Shown piece by piece: positions 7,537 through 33,091 of a stretch of DNA of 64,000 bases. Source of the stretch: Escherichia coli (GTDB taxonomy: Bacteria; Pseudomonadota; Gammaproteobacteria; Enterobacterales; Enterobacteriaceae); the NCBI RefSeq assembly GCF_011045215.1, contig NZ_CP049201.1; one strand, given 5' to 3'. The notes below the pieces were generated by a model. It had not been told where the DNA came from, did not search any database, and saw only the letters and a list, made by a program, of their open reading frames with translations. A program made the translations under genes and the position numbers. How positions within the stretch are numbered: position 1 is the first letter of the stretch; every line of letters starts with the position of its first letter.

Positions 7537-7647
7537 TCGTTGTAACCTGATTAACTGAGACTGACGGCAACGCCAAATTGCCTGATGCGTTGCGCTTATC
7601 AGGCCTACAAGTTGAATTGCAATTTATTGAATTCGCACATTTTTGTA

Positions 7648-17527: not shown

Positions 17528-17603
<76 letters not shown>

Positions 17604-17656
17604 GTTTAAAAGGCATCGGCGTCAGCGGATGTCTGGCTGAAAGGCCTGAAGAATTT

Positions 17657-17730
17657 GGCGCGTTAACAAAGCGGTTATGTAGCGGATTGCAAATCCGTCT
17701 AGTCCGGTTCGACTCCGGAACGCGCCTCCA
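17657..17730 (+). tRNA. cysT: tRNA-Cys (anticodon GCA)
   Basis: GGCGCGTTAACAAAGCGGTTATGTAGCGGATTGCAAATCCGTCTAGTCCGGTTCGACTCCGGAACGCGCCTCCA. Confidence 0.95.
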
Positions 17731-17742
17731 CTTTCTTCCCGA

Positions 17743-17829
17743 GCCCGGATGGTGGAATCGGTAGACACAAGGGATTTAAAATCCCTCGGCGTTCGCGCTG
17801 TGCGGGTTCAAGTCCCGCTCCGGGTACCA
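17743..17829 (+). tRNA. leuZ: tRNA-Leu (anticodon TAA)
   Basis: GCCCGGATGGTGGAATCGGTAGACACAAGGGATTTAAAATCCC...GGGTTCAAGTCCCGCTCCGGGTACCA; long variable arm typical of tRNA-Leu; its 3' 55 nt are duplicated at 39473. Confidence 0.95.
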
Positions 17830-17898
17830 TGGGAAAGATAAGAATAAAATCAAAGCAATAAGCAGTGTCGTGAAACCACCTTCGGGTGGTTTTTTTGT
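17775..17898 (+). repeat. attL: 124-bp direct repeat (3' 55 nt of leuZ plus 69 nt downstream including terminator hairpin)
   Basis: Identical by eye to 39473..39596; sequence diverges immediately outside both copies. Confidence 0.85.
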
Positions 17899-18370
17899 AT
17901 TTGTATTTTGAGCAATGGCGGTAGAGTGGCGGTGGTGTGGCGATATGCAGAAACAACAATGGTAGTGCACGTGCTGTTTAAGCTCTAAGGATGAAGCAGA
18001 ATTCTCCTGCAGCTCCTCCGTATTTCGCATAGTGAACCAAGACTTCGGTTAAACAAAATTTTTCTGGGATTTTTCCACTCGACTTCATTTTTCCTCCAGT
18101 CATCCACCAAAGGTACCTGCGCTAATCTATCTTTTTTAATCTGACAACATCCTGAGAAAAGGCAAATTCGTCAGATTTACTGTTTTTTCTACTGCTTCGA
18201 ATGCCGATGTCTGCAGTACTGATAAGAGCTCTATCTCTTTGATATAGATCTTTTATTTGATGAATTGCTCGACATATTATCGTTATGACACCTTCTTGTT
18301 AAAGGTGTTGTACTCCACATCTCGATTTTATGATGTGGGTTATGATTGGTTAGTAATAGAGTGTATCGGT

Positions 18371-18652
18371 ATGCGATGTGGTTTATTAATGGCAATCTGC
18401 TTTTGTTTGGTATCTTTTAGTGGGTATGCAGCAACAGGAAAGTCTGATGTTCAGATCAAGAAAGAAATAATTAAAGAATCCATTGAATCATATCCAGGCA
18501 ATTGTGCGTGTCCTTATAATCATGCAAGGAATGGTAGTAGGTGTGGTGGACGCAGTGCATATAGCCGTACTGGAGGGTATGATGTGGTATGTTATGAGAG
18601 TGATGTTACTGATGAAATGATCCGGCAATGGAAGCAGGAGAATGCTGATTAA
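18371..18652 (+). CDS. small Cys-rich secreted protein of unknown function (prophage cargo)
   Basis: ORF 18257..18652; probable start MRCGLLMAICFCLVSFSGYA (signal peptide) followed by GNCACPYNHARNGSRCGGRSAYSRTGGYDVVCYESD; AT-rich; followed by hairpin terminator 18729..18761. Confidence 0.5.
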   Translation: MRCGLLMAICFCLVSFSGYAATGKSDVQIKKEIIKESIESYPGNCACPYNHARNGSRCGGRSAYSRTGGYDVVCYESDVTDEMIRQWKQENAD

Positions 18653-18843
18653 TTACTTTTGACTGGTTTGTTTTGCGAGCATTATGTGTGTTGTTAACGG
18701 TACCCTAGCTAAGTGAGAGTTCCAAAATAAAACCCGCAGTTTTTACGCTGCGGGTTTTATTGTTTCTGTCGATGGGATAGGGTGCCACTTCGGCCAGCCT
18801 TGGCAACCGATTGACGGGGGATTACTCCCCCGTCGCGGTTTCC

Positions 18844-18984
18844 TTACTGCTTACACTGTAAGAACGCCGCAAACTCCGCTCCCCAGAAGCTCATCCGTAT
18901 TTCACACAGCGAACCGTGCAGCATCCAGATGATGAGGATTACCGTCACGCAGAACGTGATGGCCGTAAGCGATTTTTGCGACAT
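18844..18984 (-). CDS. Hok/Gef-family type I toxin (46 aa)
   Basis: Manual translation MSQKSLTAITFCVTVILIIWMLHGSLCEIRMSFWGAEFAAFLQCKQ: single TM helix followed by SLCEIR and ...AAF motif as in Hok/Gef; AGGAG-like SD upstream; too short for the ORF track. Confidence 0.7.
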   Translation of the reverse strand: MSQKSLTAITFCVTVILIIWMLHGSLCEIRMSFWGAEFAAFLQCKQ

Positions 18985-19165
18985 AGCGCTTGCTCCTTTT
19001 TAGGGGAGGCGCTAACCTATCACTTGCTAAGGTTAGATGGTTAGGGCCTCGGTTAAACAGGGATGTTTTCCGGGGCCTTTCCACATCTGGCCTTCGGGCA
19101 TACCCTCCGACCATCAGCCGAAAGGCACCCGCGCGTAATCTATCGTTTTTTTGTTGCTTCGGCAA
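18902..19165 (-). other. mok-like overlapping reading frame upstream of and overlapping the hok-like gene
   Basis: 87-aa ORF in another frame that starts upstream of and runs across the hok start, the arrangement seen for mok in hok/sok loci; sequence itself not recognisable. Confidence 0.35.
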
Positions 19166-19174
19166 TTCTGCTCG

Positions 19175-19435
19175 TTAATTCTGAGGTAAAGGCAAACTCA
19201 TCTGATTGTTTCCCCTGTGTGACGTTGGCAGTTCATGCCACGGGATACCTTCTGAAGATCGAACGCCTGAGGTGTGTTTCGATGTGAATTTATGGAAAGC
19301 TTCCAGTGTTGAGAAGCATACGCCGCATTCCAGGTTGTTACACTGGTAATACTTTTGTCGGACGGTGTTTGAATCATTTTCCGGACGACTTGTGCGGATA
19401 CGGGCAGATGCGCCACAAAGCGGACAACGGAACAT
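19175..19435 (-). CDS. ogr: Ogr/Delta-family zinc-finger late-gene transcription activator
   Basis: MFRCPLCGASARIRTSRPENDSNTVRQKYYQCNNLECGVCF: CPLC...CxxxxC pattern and layout as in P2 Ogr (MFHCPLCQHAAHARTSR...YHQCQNVNCSATF). Confidence 0.8.
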   Translation of the reverse strand: MFRCPLCGASARIRTSRPENDSNTVRQKYYQCNNLECGVCFSTLEAFHKFTSKHTSGVRSSEGIPWHELPTSHRGNNQMSLPLPQN

Positions 19436-19678
19436 AGCAACCTCCCTTTAGGTGGTGCTATTCTAAATTTCATCAATGCAGATTCCAACTCCTTCCCACT
19501 TTAAGCGAAGGATGGTGATAAAGTCAGAAGATGTTAGATGAAATCTAAACGGGCGATAAGTTTTCCAATATTTGAATAACAACGTGGCAGGATTTTTGTT
19601 TATCAATTATCTTACACTTTTAAGTGTAATAAATTTGTTAGTGATGACAATATTGTGAGAGGAGATTATCAATTGAAG

Positions 19679-21077
19679 ATGGCAAAAAATAACAATGATA
19701 AAATGCGGGCAAAGTATAGGCCGTTCATAAATATATGGGAACATCTTCCTTCTGAGTTCAATGAACTCATCAAGACGTTAATGGTGCTGATACGGCAAGG
19801 GGAAAATGTGGGAGCTCAGCAAAGGGAGCTTGATTCCATCGAAAACTTCAAACACCTGTTAAGTGGATGGAAGCGGGCGCAAAGGATCATAGCTGATGAA
19901 CTCATTATCAGGCTTTCTCAAATCAAGGATCTGGAGTTAGAAAAGAATTGTGCCCATTCAAAAAAGGACTATGAAACAAAGAAGAAGTGTATACGCAATA
20001 TTGAAAGGACTAGACTAGAAATTAGGATTTTACGTAGGTGCATTGATTCAATTGTATGGGCGATATTCCGCAATGAACACTCGTCTATAAGACGTTTACC
20101 TATAAATAGAAATACTGACAATCTGACAATATTTAATATACATGATTCAATGGTGGTAGCAGATGAAATCAATGCTGATCCGATGGCTATAGCTGTTATC
20201 ACTGATATTACTACGTTTGTACATACTGGTGATTTACTTGCGTTAATACCTCAGCAAGGCATAACTTTAATTGAAATAAAAAGTGGTAAGAAAAATATAG
20301 AGTTTTCAAAGGCGGCTATGTTCTCAGTGCAAAGTAAATGTCTTCATTTTGATGAGATTTATAGAAAAGACCTTGATAAAAATGACTTGAAACACTATGA
20401 CAGAGCTAAGCGTCAACTTAAAAGAGCTCAAAATGTGATAGATGTCATTGAGACTGGTAAGGGATTTGATAACTTTTTTCAGTCTCAAGTAACAATTCAT
20501 GACAGAGATTTTTGTCCCGATTTTTATACAGATAAGATTATTGAGCTTTGGTATGAGATATATAACGGTAAAACTTGGGCGATTACTGACATTAATGATT
20601 GTTTATTCCTTGGGGCATATATTAATTCTAATATGGGTTTTTGCGGTTTTAATGGATGGATGGAGGTATCTAGAATATCGGGGAGAGTGGTTTAATATTC
20701 TTGATAGCTTTTCAGATGCTTTATCACGTCCATTTTTTAGTTTGAACCTACCTGATAAATTGCTTCTGGATATCATTAATGGCAATCTAATTGTTGTGCT
20801 GTGTTTCGATCATCGTCGTTTCGTAGAAAGAGCAAATAAAAAATACCCCGGGATTTATGAGTTATTGGATTTTCCATCTCCGAAGATTAATCCTATGAGT
20901 ATGCTTTCCATCAATGGGAAGGGGGTAGTTTCTAGTGTTGATGGACAGAGTGTTTTTATTGGAAATGGTTACGAAACTCGGATTATTTTTGATCAGCAAT
21001 ATCCAGATAGTCTGATTAAGTGGTCATACCATATGAGTGATCTCAAAAAAATATTGATAAAAAAAAGCGTAAAATGA
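19679..21077 (+). pseudogene. ~470-aa cargo protein with PD-(D/E)xK-like nuclease motif, interrupted by a frameshift near 20660-20690
   Basis: ORFs 19655..20695 and 20499..21077 overlap in different frames; protein-like sequence continues across frames around the direct repeat ggatggatgg; motif HTGDLLALIPQQGITLIEIKSGK (D ... E-x-K); AT-rich; upstream palindrome ttacacttt/taagtgtaa (19612..19629). Confidence 0.5.
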
Positions 21078-21272
21078 AAAAGGAAACGCAAAGAAAAATA
21101 AAAGAGAAAAGAAAACGTAGCAGAAAACAATGCTTAAACTAACACATCTAATGCTTTAATTTGCTTTACTGTTACAATGTCCGCTTACTGGTACAGGGCG
21201 GACTGCCATATTAGATTTGGTTCTATCTCGTAAGAGTGGCCGTTCAGGTCTGCACTAATACATCTGAATGGT

Positions 21273-22382
21273 TCACTCTGTTTCTGCTATCCATTCCGGG
21301 ATTTTTGCTTCAAGCTCAAGCTGCGTGGTAAAGCCGCTGTTATCAATGGTGTGCTCGGCTTTTGCAATAATCCAGTCCTGATTATCAATCTCGCTTTTAA
21401 ATCCTGTTACCGTGCCATGCATTTCGGGGTAGAGTTCTGCGCGTCCGCGTGCCAGTGTGATGGAGAATGATGCGGCTCCGCGTTGTAGTTGTTGCCACTT
21501 TGCCGCCGCTGCGCGTCTTGCTGCCTGCTCGTTCTGATAAGTCTTGCGTAACACAAACACATTGCCTTCCGCGCCTTCCATATAATCACCTTCACGGCTG
21601 CTGCTTTTCTCTTTTTTCGGTTTTGGCGGTTTGCGGCGTTTCACGCTGACTTTTTTCTTTTTCCCGTAATTAAGATCAAGCCAGTAAGCGCGTACCCCCG
21701 TATACGCCTCGCGGTCAGCAATGCGGAACTGATGGCGATCGCCGCTGCTGCGTGTGATGGCGAACGAGGGCAACGGCTGGCCCTGTGCGTTCACGCCACC
21801 GCCGGGCATGATGAATAACAGATTACCGCTTTTTACCGTGGTGATTGCGCCCAGCATTTCCGCCATGCGCGTAAGGAAGGACATGTCACTTTCTTCGGTC
21901 TGGTCGGCGTGGTCGATTTCGATATCCATCAGCATTTCGCTGATTTGCGGTTTCAGACCGTACCGATGAGCGATGGCGGATACCACACGCTCAACGGTCA
22001 CATCATGCCAGGACATCTCACGTTTAACGTTAAATTCATCCCGAAAATCTGCGCTTCTGGCTGAAACAGTCAGCCTGTCCGGCGGTCCTTCGTGTGCGAT
22101 TTCATCAACAATGTAAGAGCCTTTTTCTGTCAGCGGTTCGCCTTTCCAGCCAATGAGAACCGTCAGGCGCGCGCCCCGTGGCGGTAGCCGCAACTGACCA
22201 TCCGCATCATCCAGCGTGATGGTGAGCTGGTCTGCCTCAAATCCCCGGTTGTCGGTCAGCGACAGGCTCATCAGGCGCTCTGCCACGCCGGACAGCGTTT
22301 TACCCTCCGCGAGAATATCAAAATCCGGCATTTTTACGGGGTCTGTGCCCTGACTGAGCAATTGCATGGTGGTGTCGGTCAT
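21273..22382 (-). CDS. P2 gpD-like tail protein (late control gene D)
   Basis: ORF 21273..22514; probable start MTDTTMQLLSQGTDPV...; P2 D-family by recollection and by position next to the tail-gene block. Confidence 0.8.
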   Translation of the reverse strand: MTDTTMQLLSQGTDPVKMPDFDILAEGKTLSGVAERLMSLSLTDNRGFEADQLTITLDDADGQLRLPPRGARLTVLIGWKGEPLTEKGSYIVDEIAHEGPPDRLTVSARSADFRDEFNVKREMSWHDVTVERVVSAIAHRYGLKPQISEMLMDIEIDHADQTEESDMSFLTRMAEMLGAITTVKSGNLLFIMPGGGVNAQGQPLPSFAITRSSGDRHQFRIADREAYTGVRAYWLDLNYGKKKKVSVKRRKPPKPKKEKSSSREGDYMEGAEGNVFVLRKTYQNEQAARRAAAAKWQQLQRGAASFSITLARGRAELYPEMHGTVTGFKSEIDNQDWIIAKAEHTIDNSGFTTQLELEAKIPEWIAETE

Positions 22383-22539
22383 CTGTTCCCTCCCTGTGCG
22401 GCATGGTCGCATGTGCGTGCGGAGGGGGTTACTGCTTTTTGTTGTCGCCGGGTCGGGAGAACGGCGCAGGGGTGAGATTACGCGCGTGGTGGGTGATGAT
22501 TGTTGCCGAATCATTTAACGGATACAAGGGGCTGAAGCT

Positions 22540-23724
22540 ATGAGTGAAACTCGTTTTCATGGTGCCCGTGTTACGGAAAATACCGACCTGGTAACAGCGA
22601 TTAACGATGTTGATTCCAGCGTTATCGGTATCGTGGCAACGGCGGATGATGCGGACGCGAAGCTGTTCCCGCTGAACAAGCCCACACTGCTGACCCGCGT
22701 CAATGACGTGCTGGGAAAATGCGGGACAACGGGGACGCTTTATCGTGCGCTTAAGGCCATCGCAGACCAGGTGAGCACAAAGGTGATCGTCGTTCGCGTG
22801 GCTGAACACAAAGAAGAAGACGGAAAAACGCAGGATCAACTGGTTATCGGTGGTTCTGAATCTGACGGCAGCTATACGGGGATGTATGCGCTGCTTGTTG
22901 CAGAGCAGGATGAAAGCATCGGATACCGTCCGCGTATTCTGGCCGCGCCGGAGCTGGACACGGAGGCGGTAACAAAATCCCTGTGCGTGATTGCGGGTAA
23001 ACTGCGCGCGTTTGTGTATGCCTCATGTCACGGCTGTAACACGATGGCTGAGGCGATTACCTACCGCCAGAAATTCAACGAACGTGAGGTGATGCTCTTA
23101 TGGCCGGACTTCATCGCCTACAACCCGAAAAGTGGCAAAAACGAAACGTTCCCCGCGCCTGCCTATGCGTGCGGCCTTCGTGCGTACATTGACCATGAGC
23201 AGGGATGGCACAAATCACTGTCCAACGTTCCGGTTAAAAATGTGCTGGGGATGTCGAGGCATGTGTTCTGGTCGTTGCAGGCCGAAGACAGCGATGCCAA
23301 CAGCCTCAACAACAAAGAAATCACGACCATTATTCGTCGCAACGGGTTCCGCTTCTGGGGCAACCGCACACCGGAAACGAACGCCTACATCTTTGAGGTG
23401 TATACCCGAACCGCACAGGTGCTGGCTGATTCAATTGCGGAAGCGCAGTTTGAAACCATCGACAGTCCATTAACACCCGCGAACGTGAAGGATGTTATCA
23501 GTGCCATCAGGGCAAAACTGGATTCGCTGGTTACTGCCGGGAAACTGATAGGCGCGGAGTGCTGGTATGACGTGGTGGATAACAGCACCACGGATTTACG
23601 TCAGGGACGTGTGCGTATTCGCTACAAATATACGCCCGTTCCGCCACTGGAAGACATGGAGCTTTACCAGACGTTTACTGATGAATACTTTGAACCCGCA
23701 TTTGCGGTGCTGGGAGGTGCCTGA
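22540..23724 (+). CDS. contractile tail sheath protein (P2 FI-like)
   Basis: 394 aa; shares FPLNKP, KLRAF, WPDF, EQGWHKSLSNV, GFRFWGNRT, YTRTAQV, YTPVPPLE with P2 FI as recalled. Confidence 0.9.
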   Translation: MSETRFHGARVTENTDLVTAINDVDSSVIGIVATADDADAKLFPLNKPTLLTRVNDVLGKCGTTGTLYRALKAIADQVSTKVIVVRVAEHKEEDGKTQDQLVIGGSESDGSYTGMYALLVAEQDESIGYRPRILAAPELDTEAVTKSLCVIAGKLRAFVYASCHGCNTMAEAITYRQKFNEREVMLLWPDFIAYNPKSGKNETFPAPAYACGLRAYIDHEQGWHKSLSNVPVKNVLGMSRHVFWSLQAEDSDANSLNNKEITTIIRRNGFRFWGNRTPETNAYIFEVYTRTAQVLADSIAEAQFETIDSPLTPANVKDVISAIRAKLDSLVTAGKLIGAECWYDVVDNSTTDLRQGRVRIRYKYTPVPPLEDMELYQTFTDEYFEPAFAVLGGA

Positions 23725-24236
23725 TGGCTGTGCCAAAACATCTTCGCTTTTTTACGCTGTTTGTGGATGGTGAAAACGAAGTGGGTAAGGTGACGTCCGT
23801 CACTCTGCCTAAGCTGACGCGCAAAACCGACAGCTACCGGGGTGGCGGCATGATGGGTGCGGTAAGTATTGATCTCGGTCTGGACGACTCCGCGCTTGAT
23901 GCGAGCTTTGTCATGGGGGGCGCAGTTCGTGAGCTGTTCCTTAAGTATGGCGGCACGATTGACGGCACGCTGCTGCGTTTTGCGGGTGAATACTACACCG
24001 ATGCAGAAAGCGACCTGTATGAAGTCGAAATGCGCGGACGTGTGACGGAAATTGATATGGGGGAAGCCAAACAGGGCGAAGCCACATCACACACTTACGC
24101 CATTAAAAACACCTACTACAAGCTGAGTGTTAACGATCGCCCGTTGTGGGAGATTGACCTGCTGAACTTCATTTACCGGAAGGACGGCAAGGACATTGTG
24201 CCCGATCGCATCCGTTCCGCGCTTGGGCTTGGCTGA
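23724..24236 (+). CDS. tail tube protein (P2 FII-like)
   Basis: 170 aa; SVTLPKLTRK...YRGGGM...LGLDD pattern as in P2 FII; directly follows FI. Confidence 0.85.
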   Translation: MAVPKHLRFFTLFVDGENEVGKVTSVTLPKLTRKTDSYRGGGMMGAVSIDLGLDDSALDASFVMGGAVRELFLKYGGTIDGTLLRFAGEYYTDAESDLYEVEMRGRVTEIDMGEAKQGEATSHTYAIKNTYYKLSVNDRPLWEIDLLNFIYRKDGKDIVPDRIRSALGLG

Positions 24237-24290
24237 TAAGTAATATGCAGGCGGCGCAGTGCGTCGCCTCTGACTGAAAGGAGTTTCCTG

Positions 24291-24656
24291 ATGAAAGAGA
24301 CGAAAAACATCGATACCGAAAACACGGTAGTTACTGACACTGTGAAAGAAACCAGTGAGCGTGGCGTAAAACTTACCCAACCAATTGAGCGAGGCGGCGA
24401 AAAAATCACGTATGTGGAGATCACCGGGGCTATTGAGCAGGCTGGATCTCTGCGAGATTTGTCGCTGTCTGATGTGCTGAATCTGAAAGCGGAATCCATG
24501 TTTACGCTGCTGTCACGCGTGACATCACCGCGACTGGATGAAGTGACGATCAAAAAAATGGCATCCCGTGACTTTATTCAGTTATGTGTGGTTGCCGTAA
24601 ATTTTTTGAGCGGTGCGGACTCTGGCGGGAAGAACGAACAGGCGACGGAAGCCTGA
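24291..24656 (+). CDS. tail assembly chaperone (P2 gpE-like)
   Basis: 121-aa ORF between tube and tape-measure genes; contains the slippery site for E' frameshifting. Confidence 0.75.
   Translation: MKETKNIDTENTVVTDTVKETSERGVKLTQPIERGGEKITYVEITGAIEQAGSLRDLSLSDVLNLKAESMFTLLSRVTSPRLDEVTIKKMASRDFIQLCVVAVNFLSGADSGGKNEQATEA
24602..24608 (+). other. predicted -1 programmed ribosomal frameshift site (TTTTTTG) producing E+E' fusion
   Basis: T6G heptamer inside gpE-like ORF; the -1 frame (ORF 24584..24820) extends to the start of the tape-measure gene, as in P2 E/E'. Confidence 0.6.
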
Positions 24657-24770
24657 TCACGGTTGTGTGCTTTGAGCACATAGAAGACTTTGTGGCGGAT
24701 ATTGCCGCCATTTTTAACTGGTCGCCCGCCGAAATCTTCATGATGACGCCCGGCGAAGTGGTTAGCTGGC

Positions 24771-27614
24771 GTGAGCGGGCGGCACTTCGCAGCGGGAATG
24801 CAGACAATGAAGACTCTTGATATCCGGGTCGCTTTCAGCGCCGTTGACAGGCTGACCCGGCCTGCCGAAAACGCCCGCCGCCTGATGGGGCAGTTTGGTG
24901 ACTCCATCCAGCGAACGCAGGGGGCGATCAAAAATCTCGAGCGTCAGGCGCGTTCATTTGAGCGCGCCCGTGACGCTGTCAGTAAAGCGGATGCTGGCAT
25001 ATTGAAAGCACGACGCCAGCTTAACGCCCTTAATCAGTTACAACGCACGGGTACAGTGCTCAGCGAAAAACAACAAAAGCTGATGCAGCAGTTAAGCACC
25101 CGGCTTGAACGCCTGAATGAATCGCGCACACGTGAAATTCAGAAAATGCGGGAGCTTGGCGGAGAGCTGAAACGCCACGGCATTTCCCTGACAGGCAGCG
25201 ATAACACCATCCAGCAGGCCATCAGACGCACCGAACAGTACAACAACCAGCTTGAACGCGAACGGCAGGCGCTTGCGCGTGTAACGCGGGCGCGTGAGCG
25301 GTATTCGCGCGCGCAGGAAACCGCGGGAAAACTGAAAACAGGTGGTGCGCTGGCAATTGGTGCGGCAGCGGCTGGCGGCTATGCTGCCGGGCGTTTTTTG
25401 CAGCCTGCGATCGGGTTCGGCAAAGAGATGTCCCGCGTTCAGGCACTGACGCGAATCGACAAAAACAGCCCGCAGTTTAAGGCGCTGCGTGAGCAGGCGT
25501 TAAAACTTGGCTCTGAAACACAGTTTACTGCGAGTGATGCCGCCAGTGGGCAGAGCTTTCTGGCAATGGCTGGTTTTACTCCGCAGTCCATTCAGGCCGC
25601 ATTGCCCGGTGTTCTTAATATGGCGCTGGCAGGTGGCGTCGAACTCGGCGAGACGGCTGATATAGGCTCCAATATCCTCACACAGTTCAACCTGACAGCC
25701 GATCAAATGGGCCGTGTTGGCGATACGCTGACAGCAGCATTCACCCGGACCAATACTGATTTACGCGCGCTGGGCGAAACCATGAAGTATACCGGTCCGG
25801 TTGCCGCAAAACTTGGTATCAGTCTTGAAGAAGCGGCAGCCATGGCCGGGATGCTTGCCAATAATGGTCTTCGTGGAAGCGATGCTGGTACGGCCATTCG
25901 CGCAAGTCTGTCCCGCCTTGCATCACCGCCAAAAGCTGCGGCTGATGCGCTGAAAGAGCTGGGGGTGTCAGTTGCTGACGCCAGAGGCAAAATGCGCCCG
26001 ATGGAGGATGTGCAGCTTGATCTCTACAAGGCGACACAAAAATACGCACAGGTGGACCAGGTTTCCTTCTTCAAGGACATCGCCGGAGAAGAGGCGTTCG
26101 TTGGTTTGCAGACGCTTGTTGCGGCGTCTGGTTCAGGAGAGCTGCAAAAACTGACCAGAGAATTGCAGGGGGCAAGGGGAGAGGCCGATCGCGTTGCAAA
26201 AGTAATGGCCGATAATCTTGATGGGGACCTGAAAAATCTCGACAGCGCATGGGAAGGTCTTCGTATTCGCATCAGTGATCTGGTTGACGGTCCGCTGCGT
26301 TCTGTCACGCAGTGGCTCACGCGGGGGCTTGAAAAAATCACCTCGCTGGCGCAGGCCCATCCGGTACTGACGCGCCAGCTACTGATAGCAGGCGGTGCGT
26401 TGCTGGCAATGACTGTAACGATTGGCTCGTTGTCGCTGGTTATTGGGGGGCTTTACGGGAAGCTGGCTACCTTGCGTCTTGGTTTTGACATTCTTACCCG
26501 GTCAATGAATGTCGTCAGGGTGTTGCCTGCGCTGTGGGGAATGGTGACGGGTTCCGTTTCTTTACTGGGAGGCGCTATCGGGGCGCTGTTCAGTCCGGTT
26601 GGTCTTATCGTGGCTGCGCTTGCCGGAGCTGCCGTTCTTATCTGGAAATACTGGGATCCCATCAGGGCATTTTTTGCAGGGGTGTTCAGCGGGATTATGG
26701 AAAGGCTGACCCCGTTGCGCGAAACCTTTGAACGGTTTGGTCCTGTTTTTGACGCAATCGGAAGCGGGATCAGCCAGGTGTTTAACTGGTTTAAATTGCT
26801 GCTGTCACCGATGGAGTCCAGCAAGGAAACGCTGGATAAATGCACCAGTGCTGGCGAGGTATTCGGTAACGTTCTTGGTGGCGCGTTACAGCTTGTTCTG
26901 ACGCCTGCAAAAATGCTGCTGGATACGCTGGCGTGGATACTTGAAAAACTCGGTGTGCTTCCGGATGAGGCGGAAAGGGCGCGTAAGAAAATCGAAGACG
27001 CACAGCGTGCGGCCATTCTTCAGGACAAGGTTGCCTTGCTTCAGGGGGATCTGGCGAAAATCAATCCGCCGAAGCCTGTGGAAAATGGCAATGGCACCGG
27101 AGGTGATAAACCCAAAGACAACAAACCGCTCACAGACAGCAATACCGGGACGCTACGCAGACTCAGCAAAATTGCTGATAACACAGGTAAGCTGGTTGAT
27201 GAGACGAAAAAACGCATTGGCCCCGGCGATATTGTCTTTAAGAACCTGCCCCGCGCACTTGCTGTTCGTGGGGAGTGGCAGGAGCGGAAGATTGCGCAGG
27301 TCAGTAAGCCTGCCCCCGCAATTAATATCACACCTGTGGTCCCGGCTCCGCTGCCTCCGACGCTGGTCCCTGTTGTTGCGGCCAGCTCCCGCCCGGTGGC
27401 GGAGTCCATACGATCTCCAGTGGCATCAGTTCCTGCAACTTCCCGTAACCGGGAGCCTGTTGCCTCCGGATTTGGCGGTGAAATTCATGTTCATCTGCAT
27501 AACGTTGTTACGCAGAATCCCCGCGAACTGGCGAAACTGGTCGGCGAAATGGTCAGTGCAGAAATGGAACGGCGCGCCCGTGCCAGGCGTGGCAGTTTTT
27601 ACGATAAAGATTGA
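24771..27614 (+). CDS. tail tape-measure protein (P2 gpT-like)
   Basis: 947-aa ORF, coiled-coil N-terminus, Gly/Ala-rich hydrophobic central segments; position after E/E'. Confidence 0.9.
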   Translation: MSGRHFAAGMQTMKTLDIRVAFSAVDRLTRPAENARRLMGQFGDSIQRTQGAIKNLERQARSFERARDAVSKADAGILKARRQLNALNQLQRTGTVLSEKQQKLMQQLSTRLERLNESRTREIQKMRELGGELKRHGISLTGSDNTIQQAIRRTEQYNNQLERERQALARVTRARERYSRAQETAGKLKTGGALAIGAAAAGGYAAGRFLQPAIGFGKEMSRVQALTRIDKNSPQFKALREQALKLGSETQFTASDAASGQSFLAMAGFTPQSIQAALPGVLNMALAGGVELGETADIGSNILTQFNLTADQMGRVGDTLTAAFTRTNTDLRALGETMKYTGPVAAKLGISLEEAAAMAGMLANNGLRGSDAGTAIRASLSRLASPPKAAADALKELGVSVADARGKMRPMEDVQLDLYKATQKYAQVDQVSFFKDIAGEEAFVGLQTLVAASGSGELQKLTRELQGARGEADRVAKVMADNLDGDLKNLDSAWEGLRIRISDLVDGPLRSVTQWLTRGLEKITSLAQAHPVLTRQLLIAGGALLAMTVTIGSLSLVIGGLYGKLATLRLGFDILTRSMNVVRVLPALWGMVTGSVSLLGGAIGALFSPVGLIVAALAGAAVLIWKYWDPIRAFFAGVFSGIMERLTPLRETFERFGPVFDAIGSGISQVFNWFKLLLSPMESSKETLDKCTSAGEVFGNVLGGALQLVLTPAKMLLDTLAWILEKLGVLPDEAERARKKIEDAQRAAILQDKVALLQGDLAKINPPKPVENGNGTGGDKPKDNKPLTDSNTGTLRRLSKIADNTGKLVDETKKRIGPGDIVFKNLPRALAVRGEWQERKIAQVSKPAPAINITPVVPAPLPPTLVPVVAASSRPVAESIRSPVASVPATSRNREPVASGFGGEIHVHLHNVVTQNPRELAKLVGEMVSAEMERRARARRGSFYDKD

Positions 27615-27620
27615 GGAGTC

Positions 27621-28115
27621 ATGGCCATGATGATGATCTATGGCATGTTTGTTTTTGAGCTGCGCACACTGCCACATCAGCAGTTACAGCAAAACAAAAG
27701 CTGGCGGCATGTGAAAAATGAACGCGTTAACCGTTCAGCAAGCTGGCAGTATATCGGTGCAGGTGATGATCGCATCGTTCTTTCCGGCGTGCTTTATCCT
27801 GAAATTACAGGTGGTGAAGTGTCGCTGTCGCTGCTGACCACGCAGGCATATACAGGGCGGCCCTGGCCTCTGATTGATGGTGTCGGGCAGATTTACGGCA
27901 TGTATGTCCTGACCGGAACGAATACGACCCGCTCCGAGTTTGATCGCTACGGTAAGGCGAAAAAAATAGAATTTTCACTGACCCTTGAACGCTGTGATGA
28001 GGATTTGCGGGAGCGCCTGCAATCCTCATCGTTCAGCGATATGCTGTCCGGCTTCAAAGATAAGGTGACATCATCCCTTAACAGCGCGGCCAGTTCAGTT
28101 AAAGGACTGTTCTGA
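27621..28115 (+). CDS. tail protein (P2 gpU-like)
   Basis: 164-aa ORF directly after tape-measure gene; MMIYGMFVFELRTLPHQQLQ... P2 U-like. Confidence 0.8.
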   Translation: MAMMMIYGMFVFELRTLPHQQLQQNKSWRHVKNERVNRSASWQYIGAGDDRIVLSGVLYPEITGGEVSLSLLTTQAYTGRPWPLIDGVGQIYGMYVLTGTNTTRSEFDRYGKAKKIEFSLTLERCDEDLRERLQSSSFSDMLSGFKDKVTSSLNSAASSVKGLF

Positions 28116-28211
28116 TTTTACATTGCCGCCGATACCCTCATATTGGGTAATGGGCGGCTTGTTGTTATATAATATATCGTAGGTCCTGATAAAACTGTTG
28201 AGGTTTCTACT

Positions 28212-29450
28212 TTATAAAGAATTGCTACTTTCTAATTCTGGGTTTCTGGATCTATTTTTACAACCTAAATCCGAGTGGTAATTCGGTATATCGTTTGTCA
28301 AATCTTGTTTGATAGCATTAATTAAGATCATTATGTCGAATTTATGCATATCGTCGCCCCCTTCAGACCTTAGATGTTCGGATGTGGTGAGTTGAGTCGC
28401 TAATTTGCTGTTTGGCCCCCACACAATATTGTTTTCGAATTTTCCTTCATGCATTCTGTTATTATATATACAGTATTGTCTAATGTTTAATCCACTGGCT
28501 AAATGTACAATAGCAGTATCTACAGTTATAACAAAATCAGCATGGCGAACCAATGCAAATGAACATCCGGCATCAGAAAATGGAGATAGAGACACATTAT
28601 CCAATCCATTGTGATTAATCTGTTCTCCCATATTAAAAACTATTGTGTGATATCCCTTAAGGTTATTAAGGTAAGCTAGTACTTTGTTTATCTGTTCATC
28701 AGATAATGTTCTGCTATTCTGAGAACCATAAGGGTTAAATATAACTAATTTTTTGTTTTTCTTCCTGAATTCATTTGCAACAATATTTGCTGGTTCATAT
28801 ATTTTGTTGTCAAAATTAAGCGCTGCAGCATAATTATTATTTTTTATCTTTAGTAAAGATAAAACTTTTTTCATTCTTTCAGATGTGTGAATGGAACGAT
28901 TATCGATTATATTTGTATCAAAAATAGTTACGGCAGGATGATTAAAACAGATAGAGTGTTTAGGTCTAAGTAAATGTAGTGTTTGCAATCTGGTTATCGC
29001 TGTGTTATCAAAATTTGAGAAGTCAACAACAAGATCTACATTCAGTTTTTTTATCTTTGCTTTTAGTTCGTTAAATTTATTTTTCTCGTAAGATATAAAG
29101 GCATCCACGCCAACAATATCAGTAAAGAGGAATGATACTCTTGAAGGTGCTATCACATATACCACCATACCGGATTTTTGAAGTTGTTTAATAAACCCTG
29201 AGGTAACGATGCCGTCACCAATGGCTTGCATGTGCATGAAAATGCACACTGTTTTATAACTATCCGGCTGTAATGATGTTTTCCTTCTGTATCGCATTTT
29301 TAGAAATGCCAGTCTGGCCTTCGTCTTTATCTTTTTTGTTTTAATATTTCGCTCTCTGTTAAGCTGTTTTAATGATGAAATAACATTCATAATGGTACCC
29401 TGAAAATCCAAATCACACATGTCATCCGAAATGAGCAGGATACTATACAA
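28212..29450 (-). CDS. glycosyltransferase family 9 (LPS heptosyltransferase-like) cargo gene
   Basis: 412-aa ORF, very AT-rich; N-terminal ...MQAIGDGIVTSGFIKQL and C-terminal ...FVITVDTAIVHLASGLN resemble the GT9 motifs of WaaC/WaaF-type enzymes; start may be internal. Confidence 0.6.
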   Translation of the reverse strand: MYSILLISDDMCDLDFQGTIMNVISSLKQLNRERNIKTKKIKTKARLAFLKMRYRRKTSLQPDSYKTVCIFMHMQAIGDGIVTSGFIKQLQKSGMVVYVIAPSRVSFLFTDIVGVDAFISYEKNKFNELKAKIKKLNVDLVVDFSNFDNTAITRLQTLHLLRPKHSICFNHPAVTIFDTNIIDNRSIHTSERMKKVLSLLKIKNNNYAAALNFDNKIYEPANIVANEFRKKNKKLVIFNPYGSQNSRTLSDEQINKVLAYLNNLKGYHTIVFNMGEQINHNGLDNVSLSPFSDAGCSFALVRHADFVITVDTAIVHLASGLNIRQYCIYNNRMHEGKFENNIVWGPNSKLATQLTTSEHLRSEGGDDMHKFDIMILINAIKQDLTNDIPNYHSDLGCKNRSRNPELESSNSL

Positions 29451-29484
29451 AAAACTGGACTACAATGGTTTGAAATGAAAGCCT

Positions 29485-30084
29485 TTATGCTTGTTTACTC
29501 CTTGATTCCACTGGGGAAGCAGGCCACTCAATATCCGGTGCTCTTGATGTATCAACACGGTTCAGCAGCACTCGATACTTCTTCCATGCCACCAGTAACG
29601 ATGTTTCTTCCTCTGTTGCAATATTCAAATCTACGGCATCTTGAAGTGGCGAAATATGCTCACTGGCTACCTGCATGAGGCTGTTTTTTGTTTCTTCCGC
29701 CTCCCGTATCCGGAACACTTTTTCTGCTTCTGCATCTTTCACCCACGTTGTGCCGTTCCACTTCTGAAACTCCCCTTCCGGGGATAACCAGGTGACATTT
29801 TCCGGTAATGGACCGAGTTCAGAAATAAATAACGCGCCCCCTGATGCCACGTCATAAACCGTTTTACCACGATGATCTTCAACGAGATGCCAGGACGTCT
29901 TATCACTGTTGAAAATAGCCACGAAGCCAGCTGGAATATCTGGCGGAGAAATATCAGTACTATTTGCAGGTAGACCTGTATGAGGTGGAATGTATGCATC
30001 ACCTTCACCAATAAATTCATTGGTTCCGACCAGCAGATTATAAATTTTTATGGTTCGTGGTTGTTCACTCATTCTGAATGCCAT
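29485..30084 (-). CDS. tail fibre assembly chaperone (Tfa / P2 G-like)
   Basis: 199-aa ORF immediately downstream of the tail-fibre fragment; Tfa-like C-terminus (...[22 protein letters not shown]). Confidence 0.8.
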
Positions 30085-31259
30085 TATGCAAGCCTCACAA
30101 TATAGTTAAATGCGATGTTTTTTACGGTGTTTTCCGCGTTGCCATAAGCGGCAATGGTAATGGTGTGTGTGTGCGAACCAATAGCGAGCGTATGTGTATG
30201 CGCACCTATTGCTACTGTGTGAGTATGAGCTCCTGCGCTTAATACGCGATTACTTGCTGTCTTGCTTGTGTTAGTTGCATGCATTCCACCACCGGTACCG
30301 GGAGTTTCTGCGTATGCTGAAGTATTGTTGTAAGCAAAGTTGTGTGTATGTGCTCCGGTGTTATTTGTGGATTTAGTTCCGTAATCAAACGACGATGTGG
30401 TTTTCGTCCCCAAATCCGTACTGGATGCGCTGGCGCTGTGGGTGTGCGATTTAATGCCGTCCTGTTCCTGAGACAATACGGCTCGACCACTGGCTGGTTT
30501 GCCCTTAATCGTCCAGCCACGCATATCAGGGATCACGCCTGACGGATAAGCGGCTGCAAGTTTCGGGTATGCAGATTTGTCAAAAGTCTGCCCCTGCATC
30601 AGGGCATAACCAGACGGAACGGTATCTGATGGCCACGGGATTGGTGCGCCAGGCGGATAAAACTGCTCTGATGGCGTATAGAGTGAATAAACTGTACCGT
30701 CCGTTAACCCTTCCGGCTTATTAGCAGAATATGCTGGTGACGTATGAATCGTCACGCTGGCATTACTGGTATAATCCCATTGAATATTTACACCAGTCGC
30801 ATAATTTCCGATTGCAACGTAAATATCGTAAGTATCACCAGATGTATTGACCCAGGCAAAATTTGTAAACCCTGTCGATGTGCGCTGCCATAAAGCACCA
30901 GTAATCCCCTTCGGATTACCATTACCTGCACGCAAAACAAGTTCAGATATACCTGCCTGTTGAGGTGAACCGACGTTATATCCAGCCCCACCAATCAACG
31001 TAATTGAAACAACAGAACTCGCCTGCGGCATGGTTACCGTTGCTAATTTGAACCAACCAGCACCACCGCTAAATGACATAGTTGTTGAGTTAAGCGTACC
31101 AATATCTTTCGGTGTCAGTGTTATATCCGCTGAAAGCGCCTTACCATTCACCTTACGGGCAGAAGGTACGGTCTGGCAAGAGCCGCCCGGCAAACGTCCT
31201 GGCATCAGTCTGCGCTTTACTTTAAGCGCAATGTATTGCTCGGTTGCTACATCCCGCAC
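30084..31259 (-). pseudogene. tail fibre protein, C-terminal portion only (N-terminus deleted)
   Basis: 391-aa ORF with HTHT/His-x-His repeats ([24 protein letters not shown]) typical of fibre tips; reading frame runs into the portal fragment junction at ~31236-31259. Confidence 0.7.
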
Positions 31260-32030
31260 CCGCTGCTTTCCCGGCAGGATTTCTCGGCGCTGGCGCTGGA
31301 CTGGTTTGTGTTCGGTAACGCATTCCTTGAGCTTCGGAGCAATATGCTCGGCGAACCACTTAAATTACGGCACGCACTGGCGAAATACATGCGACGCGGA
31401 AGCGATCTTGAATCATGGTGGTATGTGCAGGATGGCAAGGACGCGTTTCAGTTTCGCCCTGGCAAAGTGTGCCACCTGATGAATCCGGACATTAACCAGG
31501 AAATTTACGGCATGCCGGAATATCTTGGAGCATTACTCTCGGCCAGCCTGTCTCATTCGGCGGACATGTTCAGAAAACTGTATTACGACAACGGATCCCA
31601 CGCCGGGTGCATCATCTACATCGGTGCAGCGCAGGTAAACCGCGAAAGCATGGACTCCCTGAAAGAAACGTTACAGGGTGCGCGTGGTGGTGGTGCGTTT
31701 AAAAACGTGCTCATCCACGCGCCCAACGGGGGCAAAGAGGGGGTGCAAATTTTGCCGTTCCAGCAGATCACCGCAAAGGATGAGTTCATGAATGTTAAGG
31801 CGGCATCCCGTGATGATGTGCTGGCTGCGCACCGCGTTCCGCCGCAACTGATGGGGGCGATGCCGGGCGAAAAAAGTGCGTTTGGTGATGTGGAGAAGGC
31901 CGCGCGGGTTTACGCAATTAACGAGCTGATGCCCGTCATGGAGGCTATGAAGCACATCAATGACTGGCTTGGCGAAGAGGTGATCCGCTTTAACCCTTAC
32001 GCACTGCTGGACACCCAGCCCACATCCTGA
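31236..32030 (+). pseudogene. portal protein fragment (P2 gpQ-like, C-terminal part)
   Basis: 264-aa ORF divergent from the tail-fibre fragment; portal-like sequence (…IYGMPEYLGALLSASLSHSADMFRKLYYDNGSHAG…); shorter than P2 Q (recalled ~344 aa); P,O,N,M,L and baseplate genes absent. Confidence 0.6.
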
Positions 32031-32560
32031 CGCGCTTCGCTTGTCTGCTGCTTCGCCGGGGCATAAAAAATTTATGCCCCGACTCTCCAGCTCCTGTATC
32101 AATCAGATAATTTCACGACGTCTTCCAGCTTATTGCCATCATCGACGGTCAGGCTCTTACGCAATCCCATCGCGCTGACTGCATGTTCTCGCCGCCTCAG
32201 TGCGATTTTGACGGCCTTATCTGCCACCCCATCAAATCAAAAGCCCTCACGTCTTTTTCACGCTCAGCGTGAGAAATACAGCCATTCTGTTGTGTTGCTG
32301 CGACATCGTTCAGGGGATGCTATTTATCCCCTGAAACGCGGGCTGTTCCCCCGTCACCTGCGCGCAGAAAAAACGCGTTTTTTTGTGCACGCACGGATCC
32401 TTGACGGATCCAGCCGCCACGGGGGCCGGAAGGGCAAAAAGTCGTTCAAAAAAATTGTGCAAATTTGTGCACTATCGTGCAGTGTGCATCGTGCTGTTTT
32501 CTGCGCAAAAAACGGATGGTAAATTTGTTCGTAGCAGGGAAATTTTAATGAGCGCAAGAC

Positions 32561-33091
32561 ATGAAGAAAGATTCATATCCTTATTTGATTTGCATGACTG
32601 TTTCAGTGCTAGGGATTATTTTCCTCTTTTACTGGTGGAGGGCAGATATCTACAGGATTACATATCTTAATTCGCGTATATCCAATTATTACATCTTGTG
32701 TAGTATGGGTATGTCCTTTTTCTTCTCCTTGTTTCTGGTGAAGAGGGGGGTAGTGAAGCAAAGTGGCTGGAAAGGACTGTCGGAATACCTGAAGGTTTAT
32801 GCTGGCTCTTGCATTCTTACAGGGATATTCCTGATTATTCCTCTTATGATGGTGACTTATTTTTTACCAGGAGTAACATCATCATATGTTGCACCGTATG
32901 AGTATACATCTGGTAGTTCAAGAAGCTGTTCCGGAGCGTTTGTTGATGATCCCGAACTGCATAAAAATATTCTTATTTGCTATCCGTATGGTAACTATGA
33001 ATATGACAATATTATCTATGTTGAAAAGAAAACTAATGCATTGGGCGTTGTTGTGACGTATGCACAGACTGCACGAGACGATGCTGAATAA
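32561..33091 (+). CDS. integral membrane protein of unknown function (hotspot cargo)
   Basis: 176 aa, about 3-4 hydrophobic helices then a soluble tail; AT-rich; preceded by TGTGCA-type repeats at 32455..32494. Confidence 0.55.
   Translation: MKKDSYPYLICMTVSVLGIIFLFYWWRADIYRITYLNSRISNYYILCSMGMSFFFSLFLVKRGVVKQSGWKGLSEYLKVYAGSCILTGIFLIIPLMMVTYFLPGVTSSYVAPYEYTSGSSRSCSGAFVDDPELHKNILICYPYGNYEYDNIIYVEKKTNALGVVVTYAQTARDDAE

Follow-up and report, generated by a model that had tools for sequence, protein, structure and literature searches.

A predicted hok/sok-type toxin–antitoxin module carried by a defective P88-like prophage of Escherichia coli

Next to the left attachment site of an Escherichia coli prophage lies a short gene that a preliminary description took for the toxin gene of a hok/mok-like type I locus. 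We asked whether this locus has the parts of a hok/sok system, whether a mok leader frame is one of them and what such a module may do in a prophage, using a window of 64,000 nt (the whole stretch of DNA analysed, from NZ_CP049201.1). Our preferred reading, which we hold to be about 85% probable, is that of a hok/sok-type type I toxin–antitoxin module encoding a 46-aa HokA-like peptide of cluster 72, which is standard cargo between ogr and the att site of P88-like (Xuanwuvirus, P2-like) phages and is found here in a defective prophage remnant. The locus as such is already known, having been catalogued through RefSeq annotation, as a named phage protein family and in a recent catalogue of Hok peptides.

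The prophage and the toxin gene

The locus is carried by a defective P88-like prophage of 21.8 kb at a tRNA-Leu gene. This prophage is flanked by an exact 124-bp direct repeat consisting of the 3' half of tRNA-Leu(UAA) and 69 nt more, with the attL copy at 17775..17898 (+) and the attR copy at 39473..39596, where it adjoins the integrase gene (38365..39366); the prophage and attL context first described for the locus is thereby confirmed, with the hok gene some 950 bp inward of attL. Other strains have an intact 35-kb prophage at the same leuZ–yecA insertion site. Compared with an intact relative, the prophage of the window has undergone deletions of 11.4 kb, 1.4 kb and 2.1 kb and has lost its lysis, head and replication genes. 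Immediately upstream of hok is a prophage gene for an ogr/Delta-like zinc-finger late activator (19175..19435, −). A hok locus occupies the same place between ogr and att in P88, as gp52, and in other Xuanwuvirus genomes, and over the 821 bp of hok locus plus ogr the window is 93–94% identical to inducible P88 and other genomes of this phage group. The neighbouring cargo ORFs gave no informative match in PADLOC, Pfam and NCBIfam searches, and a literature search found no dedicated study of the hok locus in P2-like phages, P88 or Xuanwuvirus.

The hok coding sequence runs from an ATG start over 18844..18984 (−), and its 46-aa product, MSQKSLTAITFCVTVILIIWMLHGSLCEIRMSFWGAEFAAFLQCKQ, contains both the SLCEIR and the AAF motif, in agreement with the preliminary description. 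Residues 7–23 are hydrophobic, as read from the sequence. Residues 7–44 match positions 5–42 of the 42 in the Pfam HOK_GEF model (PF01848, E 4.3e-7), and therefore the core claim of a Hok/Gef-like peptide stands; PHROG 251, labelled 'MokW-like host killing', is matched over the full length of the peptide (E 2.5e-23). Judged by these profiles, the Hok/Gef match is not due to chance. The peptide scores under the NCBIfam cut-offs, the best named match being HokA (E 6e-9; 35.8 bits against a curated cut-off of 89), and both cysteines are hard-coded as in K-12 hokA. Like the toxin of the R1 hok/mok/sok system (parB) it is a small membrane protein with an SLCEIR core, but it is shorter (46 versus 52 aa) and shares with R1 Hok 39% identity over 31 aa (BLASTP). 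Escalera-Maurer et al. (bioRxiv 10.1101/2025.08.07.668861) name M1, C16, T18, L30, C31, E32 and E41 (R1 numbering) as the residues that over 80% of Hok peptides conserve, and all seven have counterparts here (M1, C12, T14, L26, C27, E28 and E37, given that the BLASTP alignment with R1 Hok is offset by 4).

The NCBI pipeline annotates this gene too, and the RefSeq protein WP_000078920.1, named 'Hok/Gef family protein', is identical to the window peptide; this exact peptide occurs under that name on at least 1000 contigs. It is also identical, with no difference at the protein level, to unique peptide 1628 of cluster 72 in the supplementary alignment files of Escalera-Maurer et al. Expression constructs in their Table S2 include 72_1621, which differs from the window peptide by V15A, and 72_1589, which is the Stx-phage allele, and the three sequences that their text names as non-toxic include neither. 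By our reading of that study, both 72_1621, one residue away from the window peptide, and 72_1589 are toxic to E. coli upon arabinose induction. Of 5426 complete E. coli genomes, 1543 carry DNA homologous to the locus; E. coli O111:H8 8E and 14EC001 are examples of strains in which it is identical. Between diverged hok alleles dN/dS is approximately 0.3–0.4, and two Stx-phage alleles, both without mok, differ by seven synonymous and no non-synonymous changes, a pattern indicating that the peptide is under purifying selection.

The 'MokW-like' label of P88 gp52 alludes to hokW-sokW of the Stx2 prophage Sp5 (Takada et al. 2021, PMC8621323), likewise a prophage-borne hok/sok module, for which Hok toxicity and Sok antitoxin activity have been shown experimentally. 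The identity of the window locus with hokW-sokW that this label suggests was rejected. The primers of Takada et al. and Table S2 of Escalera-Maurer et al. identify HokW as a 51-aa HokD-like peptide (MKQQKAM...) of cluster 35, unlike that of the window, and Stx phages carry the cluster-72 type as a separate locus next to lom.

The hok mRNA and a Sok-like antisense RNA

The preliminary description placed the locus at 18844..19165. Modelling of the transcript suggests a larger locus of about 18722..19165, which on the 3' side also takes in a fold-back inhibition (fbi) element, a protective hairpin and a terminator. A candidate hok promoter at 19137..19165 (−), read from the sequence, has a −35 hexamer TTGCCG (19165..19160), a 17-nt spacer and a −10 hexamer TAGATT (19142..19137); a generic promoter scan did not report it, and its hexamers keep their position in 10 of 11 aligned homologues despite differing flanks. 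Transcription is predicted to start at about 19130, the position at which the Rfam hok-leader model also begins, and would yield an mRNA of about 409 nt (18722..19130, −) running from a 5' tac element (19116..19130) to a bidirectional intrinsic terminator (18726..18761) that is common to the hok mRNA and the upstream cargo ORF at 18371..18652 (+).

The leader is recognized by Rfam RF01794, a model that is named 'sok' and in fact describes the hok mRNA leader. It matches 18996..19130 (−) with 40.7 bits (E 4.8e-7), and a scan at the gathering threshold of 59 bits gave no match for the window leader. P88 (47.9 bits) and an Stx phage (38.4 bits) score similarly, in contrast to R1 (87 bits) and to hokB and hokC (110–118 bits), and these scores point to the cluster-72 leader being a divergent branch of the RF01794 family. 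A blastn comparison with the DNA of R1 hok, hokB and hokC returned nothing at E 1e-3, the links with these systems being only the covariance model and the alignment of the Sok hairpin described below.

Fold-back elements, which the preliminary description had put forward for structure prediction, are indeed predicted. The full-length mRNA has a minimum free energy (MFE) of −177.5 kcal/mol (z = −7.2) with nt 1–15 paired to the 3' end, so that, as in R1, the message is predicted to be closed by tac/fbi pairing; the fbi element GGCCGAAGUGGCACCC (18780..18795, −) pairs with the 5' end GGGUGCCUUUCGGCU. A consensus fold of 12 homologues has the same closure, in which the 13 pairs of the helix are 99–100% paired across the 12 sequences and change only from GC to GU or from UG to UA. 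In a second long-range helix, the 3'-UTR arm 18798..18811 (−) is partnered with 19019..19033, the region targeted by the Sok 5' tail, and five of its 12 pairs show compensatory double changes (e.g. CG to UA in five sequences and AU to GC in five). Directly after the hok stop codon, a stable hairpin (18812..18835, −) of nine pairs, four with compensatory changes, is 100% paired and is also present in the fold of the window RNA; by analogy with the R1 model (PMC9841398), it may be the point at which 3' processing stops to yield a truncated, activatable mRNA. The ribosome-binding region (18985..19014, −) has its Shine–Dalgarno (SD) sequence AGGAG (18993..18997) paired with an anti-SD CUCC (19005..19008) in a hairpin closed by UUAGCG and CGCUAU, the 3' arm of which takes in the A and U of the hok AUG; its 10 pairs are 98–100% paired in the 12 sequences, with one-sided changes only.

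Taken over the 12 homologues, the named structure is 96.4% paired as against 33–45% when partners are slid, and has nine pairs with compensatory changes as against 0–2 in these slid controls. These covariation tests rest on 12 closely related sequences. To enlarge the set, the 20-nt tac motif was searched for in 100,044 species genomes, and usable loci came only from E. albertii and a Citrobacter MAG, the remainder being two short, probably contaminant, contigs and three chance matches.

For the truncated mRNA the MFE structure is an alternative hairpin (GAGGC..GCCUC; 19006..19050, −) in which the anti-SD is captured and the loop displays the Sok target. This hairpin corresponds to the third helix of RF01794, and its 14 pairs are 93% paired and mostly invariant. 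A tac–ucb stem, the alternative pairing possible in R1, also appears in the predicted fold of the truncated RNA, and each of the 12 sequences is able to form it; all of its 12 pairs are invariant and hence carry no covariation signal. As neither this stem nor most of the Sok-target hairpin varies, the activated conformation is beyond confirmation by covariation. Modelled SD accessibility in the window allele is 0.12 for the full-length RNA, 0.16 for the truncated RNA and 0.06 when the Sok site is blocked; in this thermodynamic test accessibility shifts as expected in 10 of 12 alleles, but the shift is small in the window allele and the trend is accordingly regarded as weak.

A Sok-like antisense RNA had been expected on the opposite strand at around 19060..19170. 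We likewise predict such an RNA on the (+) strand, with a promoter and hairpin of its own and homology to SokB and SokC, and place it instead at about 19024..19086; 19131..19170 is the predicted hok promoter and lies outside the mRNA. The predicted RNA of about 60 nt, the ends of which are approximate, has a 13-nt single-stranded 5' tail, the hairpin GGCCUCGG..CCGGGGCC and a terminator with a UUU tail only, and so resembles the cis-antisense Sok of R1 with its single-stranded tail and terminator hairpin. Its MFE is −24.8 kcal/mol (z −3.3), compared with −16.9 for the sense strand, and the antisense strand is the more stable by 3.5–15 kcal/mol in 12 of 12 homologues. Two loop variants in the upper hairpin were out of register in the MAFFT alignment, and per-sequence folds were used there instead. 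The hairpin aligns with annotated SokC and SokB of K-12, GGCCUCGG...UCGGGGC being common to all three. Its 5' end would lie approximately 41 nt upstream of the hok AUG (49 nt for sokC), behind a predicted promoter at 18990..19018 (+) with −35 TTGCTC (18990..18995), 17 nt and −10 TAACCT (19013..19018). This promoter overlaps the hok SD hairpin, in the same layout over the translation start region as in R1 (TTGCGC-17-TATCCT), and in all 12 homologues the complement of the −10, AGGTTA, is invariant while the −35 is TTGCTC or TTGACT. The study of Escalera-Maurer et al. covered coding sequences only, with mok, Sok and mRNA structure explicitly outside its analysis, and the RNA anatomy given here is therefore additional to it.

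The reading frame in the position of mok

In R1, translation of mok up to the hok SD is mandatory for translation of hok (PMC9841398), and an overlapping frame in the position of mok was part of the preliminary description. That frame is indeed open in the window allele (18902..19114, −), with possible starts at ATG 19114 and GTG 19084; the longer mechanical ORF (18902..19165, −) begins at a TTG (19165) that falls within the predicted hok promoter and precedes the start of the transcript. It does not hold as a conserved feature. An open overlapping frame with a start inside the transcript was present in five of the 16 alleles examined and absent in 11, in which stop codons occur and none of the frames running over the hok start contains an ATG, GTG or TTG. 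These 11 include P88 (93% identical), alleles sampled from the 90–95% identity band, to which most E. coli copies belong, and Stx-phage alleles. The equivalent of the R1 and K-12 mok start reads AUC-UAA in the window (19033..19038), and no homologue has a start codon there, unlike hokB and hokC, whose annotated mok frames start under the Sok 5' end. The GAGG that precedes the mok start as its SD in the R1 architecture is present at 19047..19050. Thus, in contrast to R1, there is neither a start codon at the mok position nor a conserved mok frame, and the hok SD is predicted to be sequestered directly by the adjacent anti-SD hairpin.

A different upstream start is conserved. All 16 alleles scanned have an ATG at mRNA nt 45, shifted to nt 44 in one of them, and the pseudogene homologue L010 has lost it; in the window this ATG opens a 17-codon ORF, MWKGPGKHPCLTEALTI (19033..19086, −), which ends 37 nt before the hok SD, and across alleles the ORF from this ATG is 1 to 79 codons long.

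The locus could nevertheless be a canonical hok/mok/sok system, in which the frame from ATG 19114 or GTG 19084 to the stop at 18902 is a working mok that opens the hok start and Sok acts by blocking mok translation. Consistent with this, in the window and in a Citrobacter phage allele the frame runs uninterrupted from the beginning of the transcript past the hok SD and AUG, GAAGG lies 6 nt before GTG 19084, and in the IncC plasmid, JJ2434 and E. albertii alleles the nt-45 ATG opens an ORF of 61–79 codons in the same frame across hok; the requirement for mok in R1 points the same way. We nonetheless regard this reading as unlikely, given that the alleles without the frame include inducible P88 and Stx-phage alleles whose peptide appears to be under purifying selection, that AUC-UAA occupies the site homologous to the mok start of R1, hokB and hokC, and that ATG 19114 and GTG 19084 both fall inside the predicted tac stem, far from the Sok 5' end. 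An open leader frame of 49 codons would, by our estimate, be met by chance in roughly 10% of sequences.

Since most relatives lack mok, translation of hok here can probably proceed without a mok leader ORF, unlike in R1. How control would then be exerted can be suggested only tentatively: GAGG at 19047..19050 might act as a switch that captures the hok anti-SD after 3' processing, and Sok might work through RNA refolding and cleavage, or via the short nt-45 ORF, and not by blocking a coupled leader ORF. If this were true, the locus would represent a mok-independent variant of the textbook hok/sok mechanism, kept in over a quarter of E. coli genomes. Alternatively, because mok is mandatory in R1 and is not conserved here, hok may be poorly translated at cluster-72 loci. 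The wider interest of the locus is accordingly regulatory: an abundant subfamily appears to keep its peptide, Sok and mRNA fold under selection, mostly without a mok frame, and could reveal whether hok/sok control works without translational coupling.

Possible mechanism and role in the prophage

For the hok/sok-type module that we favour, we propose the following mechanism. A constitutive promoter (19165..19137) would produce the hok mRNA of about 409 nt, in which tac pairs with fbi, the second 5'–3' helix hides the Sok target and the anti-SD hairpin locks the hok SD; this structure comes from folding and covariation, and its consequence, a full-length RNA that is neither translated nor bound by Sok, follows the R1 paradigm. 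Slow trimming of the 3' end to the hairpin at 18812..18835 might then remove fbi and leave an RNA of about 320 nt (3' end near 18810), upon which the 5' end may pair with nt 47–59 (ucb) and GAGGC at nt 81–85 may take the anti-SD, so that the hok SD and the loop with the Sok target become accessible; this step is a prediction for which support is weak. An abundant and unstable Sok of about 60 nt (about 19024..19086, +) would pair with nt ~45–107 of the activated mRNA, restore sequestration of the SD and probably trigger cleavage by RNase III. Were sok transcription to stop, for example because the element is lost or an infecting phage shuts transcription off, the pool of stable mRNA would be translated, and Hok would enter the inner membrane and kill or arrest the cell.

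On this mechanism, the most likely role of the module is addiction, that is, stabilisation of the prophage remnant, possibly together with phage exclusion. The module may instead serve mainly phage biology, through abortive infection or exclusion of other phages or through faster lysis on induction as with hokW-sokW of Sp5. The latter raises Sp5 release approximately two-fold after mitomycin C (PMC8621323), R1 hok/sok is reported to lower T4 plating, hok genes are about four-fold enriched in prophages (Escalera-Maurer et al.), and the locus is conserved cargo of functional P88-like and Stx phages. However, hokW is a different gene (HokD-like, 51 aa) without DNA similarity to the cluster-72 locus, Escalera-Maurer et al. 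report that hok is not enriched near defence systems, and no PADLOC model matches the hok locus. Because the lysis and head genes, along with those for replication, are deleted in the window, a helper role in lysis cannot operate and is moot in this prophage. We therefore consider a role chiefly in phage biology possible and yet doubtful.

Finally, the locus may be a regulatory relic, in which an intact peptide gene is silent or cannot be activated, as at several chromosomal hok loci, and persists passively in a decaying prophage. The deletions in this prophage, the missing conserved mok and the clear pseudogene state of one homologue (L010, on an E. albertii plasmid) are consistent with such decay, and hokA, hokB and hokC, which in K-12 are core-chromosome loci (hokB and hokC with sokB and sokC) and not phage cargo, are reported, as cited by Escalera-Maurer et al., to be unable to mediate post-segregational killing and to show no activation by rifampicin. 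Against this, all predicted elements are intact (both promoters, tac, fbi, the SD hairpin and the Sok hairpin), locus and ogr remain close in sequence to those of inducible P88 and other Xuanwuvirus genomes, and compensatory changes in the long-range helices together with dN/dS below 1 show continuing selection on RNA and peptide, which makes a relic improbable. In practical terms, the limits of the module are now set at about 18722..19165 and its Sok RNA is placed, and the toxin gene could complicate cloning or deletion of the region.

The hok peptide, its prophage and its relatives

We conclude from its sequence that the locus is a genuine hok/sok module that looks functional and belongs to a catalogued subfamily, carried by a defective P88-like prophage. 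The Hok/Gef-like 46-aa ORF proposed in the preliminary description was confirmed at 18844..18984 on the minus strand (ATG start, 46 codons, MSQKSLTAITFCVTVILIIWMLHGSLCEIRMSFWGAEFAAFLQCKQ). Its product matches Pfam HOK_GEF (PF01848) at residues 7-44 (E 4.3e-7), PHROG 251 'MokW-like host killing' over the entire peptide (E 2.5e-23) and NCBIfam HokA (E 6e-9, under the curated cut-off). BLASTP gave 39% identity to R1 Hok across 31 residues, and in that alignment, at an offset of four, the peptide has every one of the seven positions conserved in >80% of Hok peptides according to a recent survey (bioRxiv 10.1101/2025.08.07.668861).

tRNA genes for Gly, Cys and Leu occupy 17528..17829, and the 3' half of tRNA-Leu plus 69 nt forms an exact 124-bp direct repeat (17775..17898 and 39473..39596). 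The second copy adjoins a tyrosine integrase gene (38365..39366), and comparison with an annotated relative places yecA at ~39723..40388. The hok locus, which had been placed next to attL, lies ~950 bp inside it. The leuZ/yecA site of other strains holds an intact 35-kb P2-like prophage. Relative to it, the element in the window has three deletions: one of 11.4 kb (junction near 31165) takes out most of the tail fibre gene and the baseplate, lysis, head and terminase genes, one of 1.4 kb (junction 36520) removes replication gene A's N-terminal part, and one of 2.1 kb near 36700 removes early genes. Because of these losses, the prophage (17775..39596) is a defective 21.8-kb P88-like remnant.

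By Megablast, 20 complete E. coli genomes contain the 821-bp region with >=99.8% identity; in them the NCBI pipeline labels the gene 'Hok/Gef family protein' (WP_000078920.1), adjoining an ogr/Delta zinc-finger gene. Of 5426 complete E. coli genomes, 1543 have a homologue at >=80% identity, and the exact peptide is on at least 1000 contigs, named Hok/Gef or 'HokA'. In the P88-like phages (genus Xuanwuvirus, Peduoviridae, P2-like) the locus is 93-94% identical and sits between ogr and the integrase-side genome end; an 81%-identical copy adjoins lom in Stx-converting phages, and a few plasmids also have one. The copy on the E. albertii plasmid pEA5_1 is decayed, with a stop at codon 2, part of the coding region missing and the promoter region replaced, indicating that the hok module does degenerate in some replicons.

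The window peptide is unique sequence 1628 in a 2025/26 preprint on Hok diversity, which reports a roughly four-fold enrichment of hok in prophages (bioRxiv 10.1101/2025.08.07.668861). Table S2 of the same preprint gives two expressed members of cluster 72, the 60% peptide cluster concerned: 72_1621, which is V15A relative to the window peptide, and 72_1589, the Stx-phage allele. The preprint text names only three non-toxic sequences, all others than these two, so both were probably toxic. The locus is thus already known, being annotated and part of a catalogued subfamily.

Folding of the hok mRNA and prediction of Sok

A promoter-like pair on the minus strand (TTGCCG 19165..19160, 17 nt, TAGATT 19142..19137) lies upstream of GGGUGCC at 19130, and its hexamers keep their position in 10 of 11 homologues despite differing flanks. 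Rfam RF01794 matches from exactly 19130 to 18996 on this strand (E 4.8e-7) with 40.7 bits, below the gathering score of 59. P88 scores 48 bits and a Stx phage 38, compared with 87-118 for K-12 hokC, hokB and an R1-type plasmid, and the cluster-72 subfamily is therefore a divergent branch. RF01794 is named 'sok' antitoxin; in these three classical loci it covers the hok leader on the sense strand, between the start of transcription and the hok AUG, and the annotated Sok strand is not matched.

The predicted 409-nt mRNA, from 19130 to the terminator at 18761..18726, folds at -177.5 kcal/mol (z -7.2), with nt 1-15 (tac) paired with GGCCGAAGUGGCACCC at 18795..18780 (the fold-back inhibition element, fbi). 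This closure was recovered in an RNAalifold consensus of 12 homologues, together with a second long-range helix (19019..19033 with 18798..18811), a hairpin pairing the hok Shine-Dalgarno (SD) sequence GGAG (18993..18996) with an anti-SD CUCC (19005..19008), and a 3' hairpin (18812..18835). Among these 12 sequences, which are closely related and from which the tested structure was itself derived, 96.4% of cells on the named structure were paired, versus 33-45% with partners slid by 1-3 columns, and nine pairs had compensatory double changes, versus 0-2 in the slid controls. These double changes cluster in the second long-range helix and in the 3' hairpin.

A sok-like antisense RNA had been expected around 19060..19170. 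Such an RNA is predicted on the opposite strand, but at ~19024..19086; the original interval is too far upstream and was rejected because 19131..19170 is promoter, outside the hok mRNA. The predicted plus-strand promoter (TTGCTC 18990..18995, 17 nt, TAACCT 19013..19018) mirrors the layout of the R1 sok promoter; it is conserved, all homologues sharing the -10 complement and having either TTGCTC or TTGACT as the -35. From near 19024, the predicted Sok has a 13-nt single-stranded tail, a hairpin (GGCCUCGG..CCGGGGCC) and then UUU, and it aligns with the annotated K-12 SokC and SokB, stem sequence included, which puts its 3' end near 19086. Its predicted minimum free energy is -24.8 kcal/mol (z -3.3) versus -16.9 for the sense strand, and the antisense strand is the more stable by 3.5-15 kcal/mol in 12/12 homologues. 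The upper stem occurs as two sequence variants, each able to pair.

Our computations show a closed full-length structure, an SD/anti-SD hairpin and a Sok promoter with its hairpin. If the R1 paradigm holds, the mRNA would be trimmed from its 3' end as far as the hairpin at 18812..18835 and so lose both fbi and the second long-range arm. In this truncated RNA, tac is predicted to form a stem with its alternative partner ucb (nt 1-14 with 47-59), and GAGGC (nt 81-85) a hairpin with GCCUC (nt 121-125) that would free the hok SD from the anti-SD. These helices are formable in 12/12 sequences yet nearly invariant, so covariation is uninformative on them. Modelled accessibility of the SD and AUG rose on truncation and fell with the Sok target blocked in 10 of 12 alleles; the effect was small in the window allele (0.12 full-length, 0.16 truncated, 0.06 with the Sok site blocked). 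Sok would restore SD sequestration and probably trigger RNase III cleavage. On our best account, such steps would provide a hok/sok switch with no need for mok coupling.

The mok reading frame

In R1, mok starts under the Sok 5' end and must be translated as far as the hok SD (PMC9841398); the K-12 mokB and mokC annotations are placed likewise. The homologous site in the window reads GAGG, then CCCUAACC-AUC-UAA, and no start codon occurs there in any homologue aligned. The overlapping frame claimed in the position of mok does exist (ORF 18902..19165), as a -1 frame that stays open through the hok start and could begin at ATG 19114 or GTG 19084, but such a frame with an in-transcript start was found in only 5 of the 16 alleles scanned. 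In the P88 and Stx-phage alleles, those sampled from the 90-95% identity band, which holds most E. coli copies, and others among the 16, both overlapping frames are interrupted by stops and lack a start. Purifying selection on the peptide is kept in alleles without a mok frame (dN/dS 0.3-0.4), and two Stx-phage alleles differ by seven synonymous and no non-synonymous changes. Mok is thus unsupported for the cluster-72 subfamily and unproven in the window allele.

At nt 45 of the hok mRNA, an almost invariant ATG that follows GAAGG opens a short ORF (MWKGP...) of 1 to 79 codons among alleles. It has 17 codons in the window (19033..19086, minus strand, ending at 19033), and in three alleles it extends across the hok start in a mok-like manner. 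Conservation of this ATG may merely reflect its overlap with the Sok 3' end and the tac stem. The Hok catalogue preprint explicitly left mok unexamined (bioRxiv 10.1101/2025.08.07.668861). The apparent absence of a conserved mok is the sole lead worth bench work; beyond it the module offers little that is new and is of low interest.

Putative role and neighbouring genes

Most plausibly, the module would stabilise the element and perhaps also exclude other phages; no PADLOC model matched the hok locus. A lysis-helper function has been shown for hokW-sokW (PMC8621323). This role was ruled out for the window hok, as the remnant is lysis-deficient and hokW (Stx2 prophage Sp5) is a separate, HokD-like gene that differs from the cluster-72 hok. 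The 'MokW-like' name on PHROG 251 and P88 gp52 is misleading. Stx-converting phages have the 46-aa cluster-72 Hok locus next to lom (1566..1706 in L002; also in L015) in addition to the published HokD-like hokW-sokW, and therefore hold two unrelated hok modules.

Between attL and hok, a small plus-strand cargo ORF (18371..18652) encodes 93 aa with a signal-peptide-like N-terminus and several Cys. It matches phrog_27544, of unknown function (E 1.6e-59), with no match in Pfam, NCBIfam or PADLOC, and its bidirectional terminator (18726..18761) also serves the hok mRNA; in P88 the slot is filled by another small gene. Further cargo at 19655..21077 (plus strand), between ogr and tail gene D, consists of overlapping ORFs (19655..20695 and 20499..21077) with no match in Pfam, NCBIfam, PHROGs or PADLOC. 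Related genomes have one ~1.4-kb hypothetical CDS in its place, and the two ORFs are possibly due to a frameshift. Tail gene U and the tail-fibre assembly gene flank a 412-aa ORF (28212..29450, minus strand) that weakly resembles LPS heptosyltransferases (E 5e-5), matches phrog_36326 along its whole length and may be a serotype-converting or receptor-modifying moron. Gathering-level Rfam matches, all on the minus strand, were IS009 within the tail-fibre assembly gene region (29543..29741, 187.7 bits), the C0465 sRNA (57751..57828, 109.8 bits) and, barely over threshold, ES036/CssrF (7601..7642, 38.1 bits).
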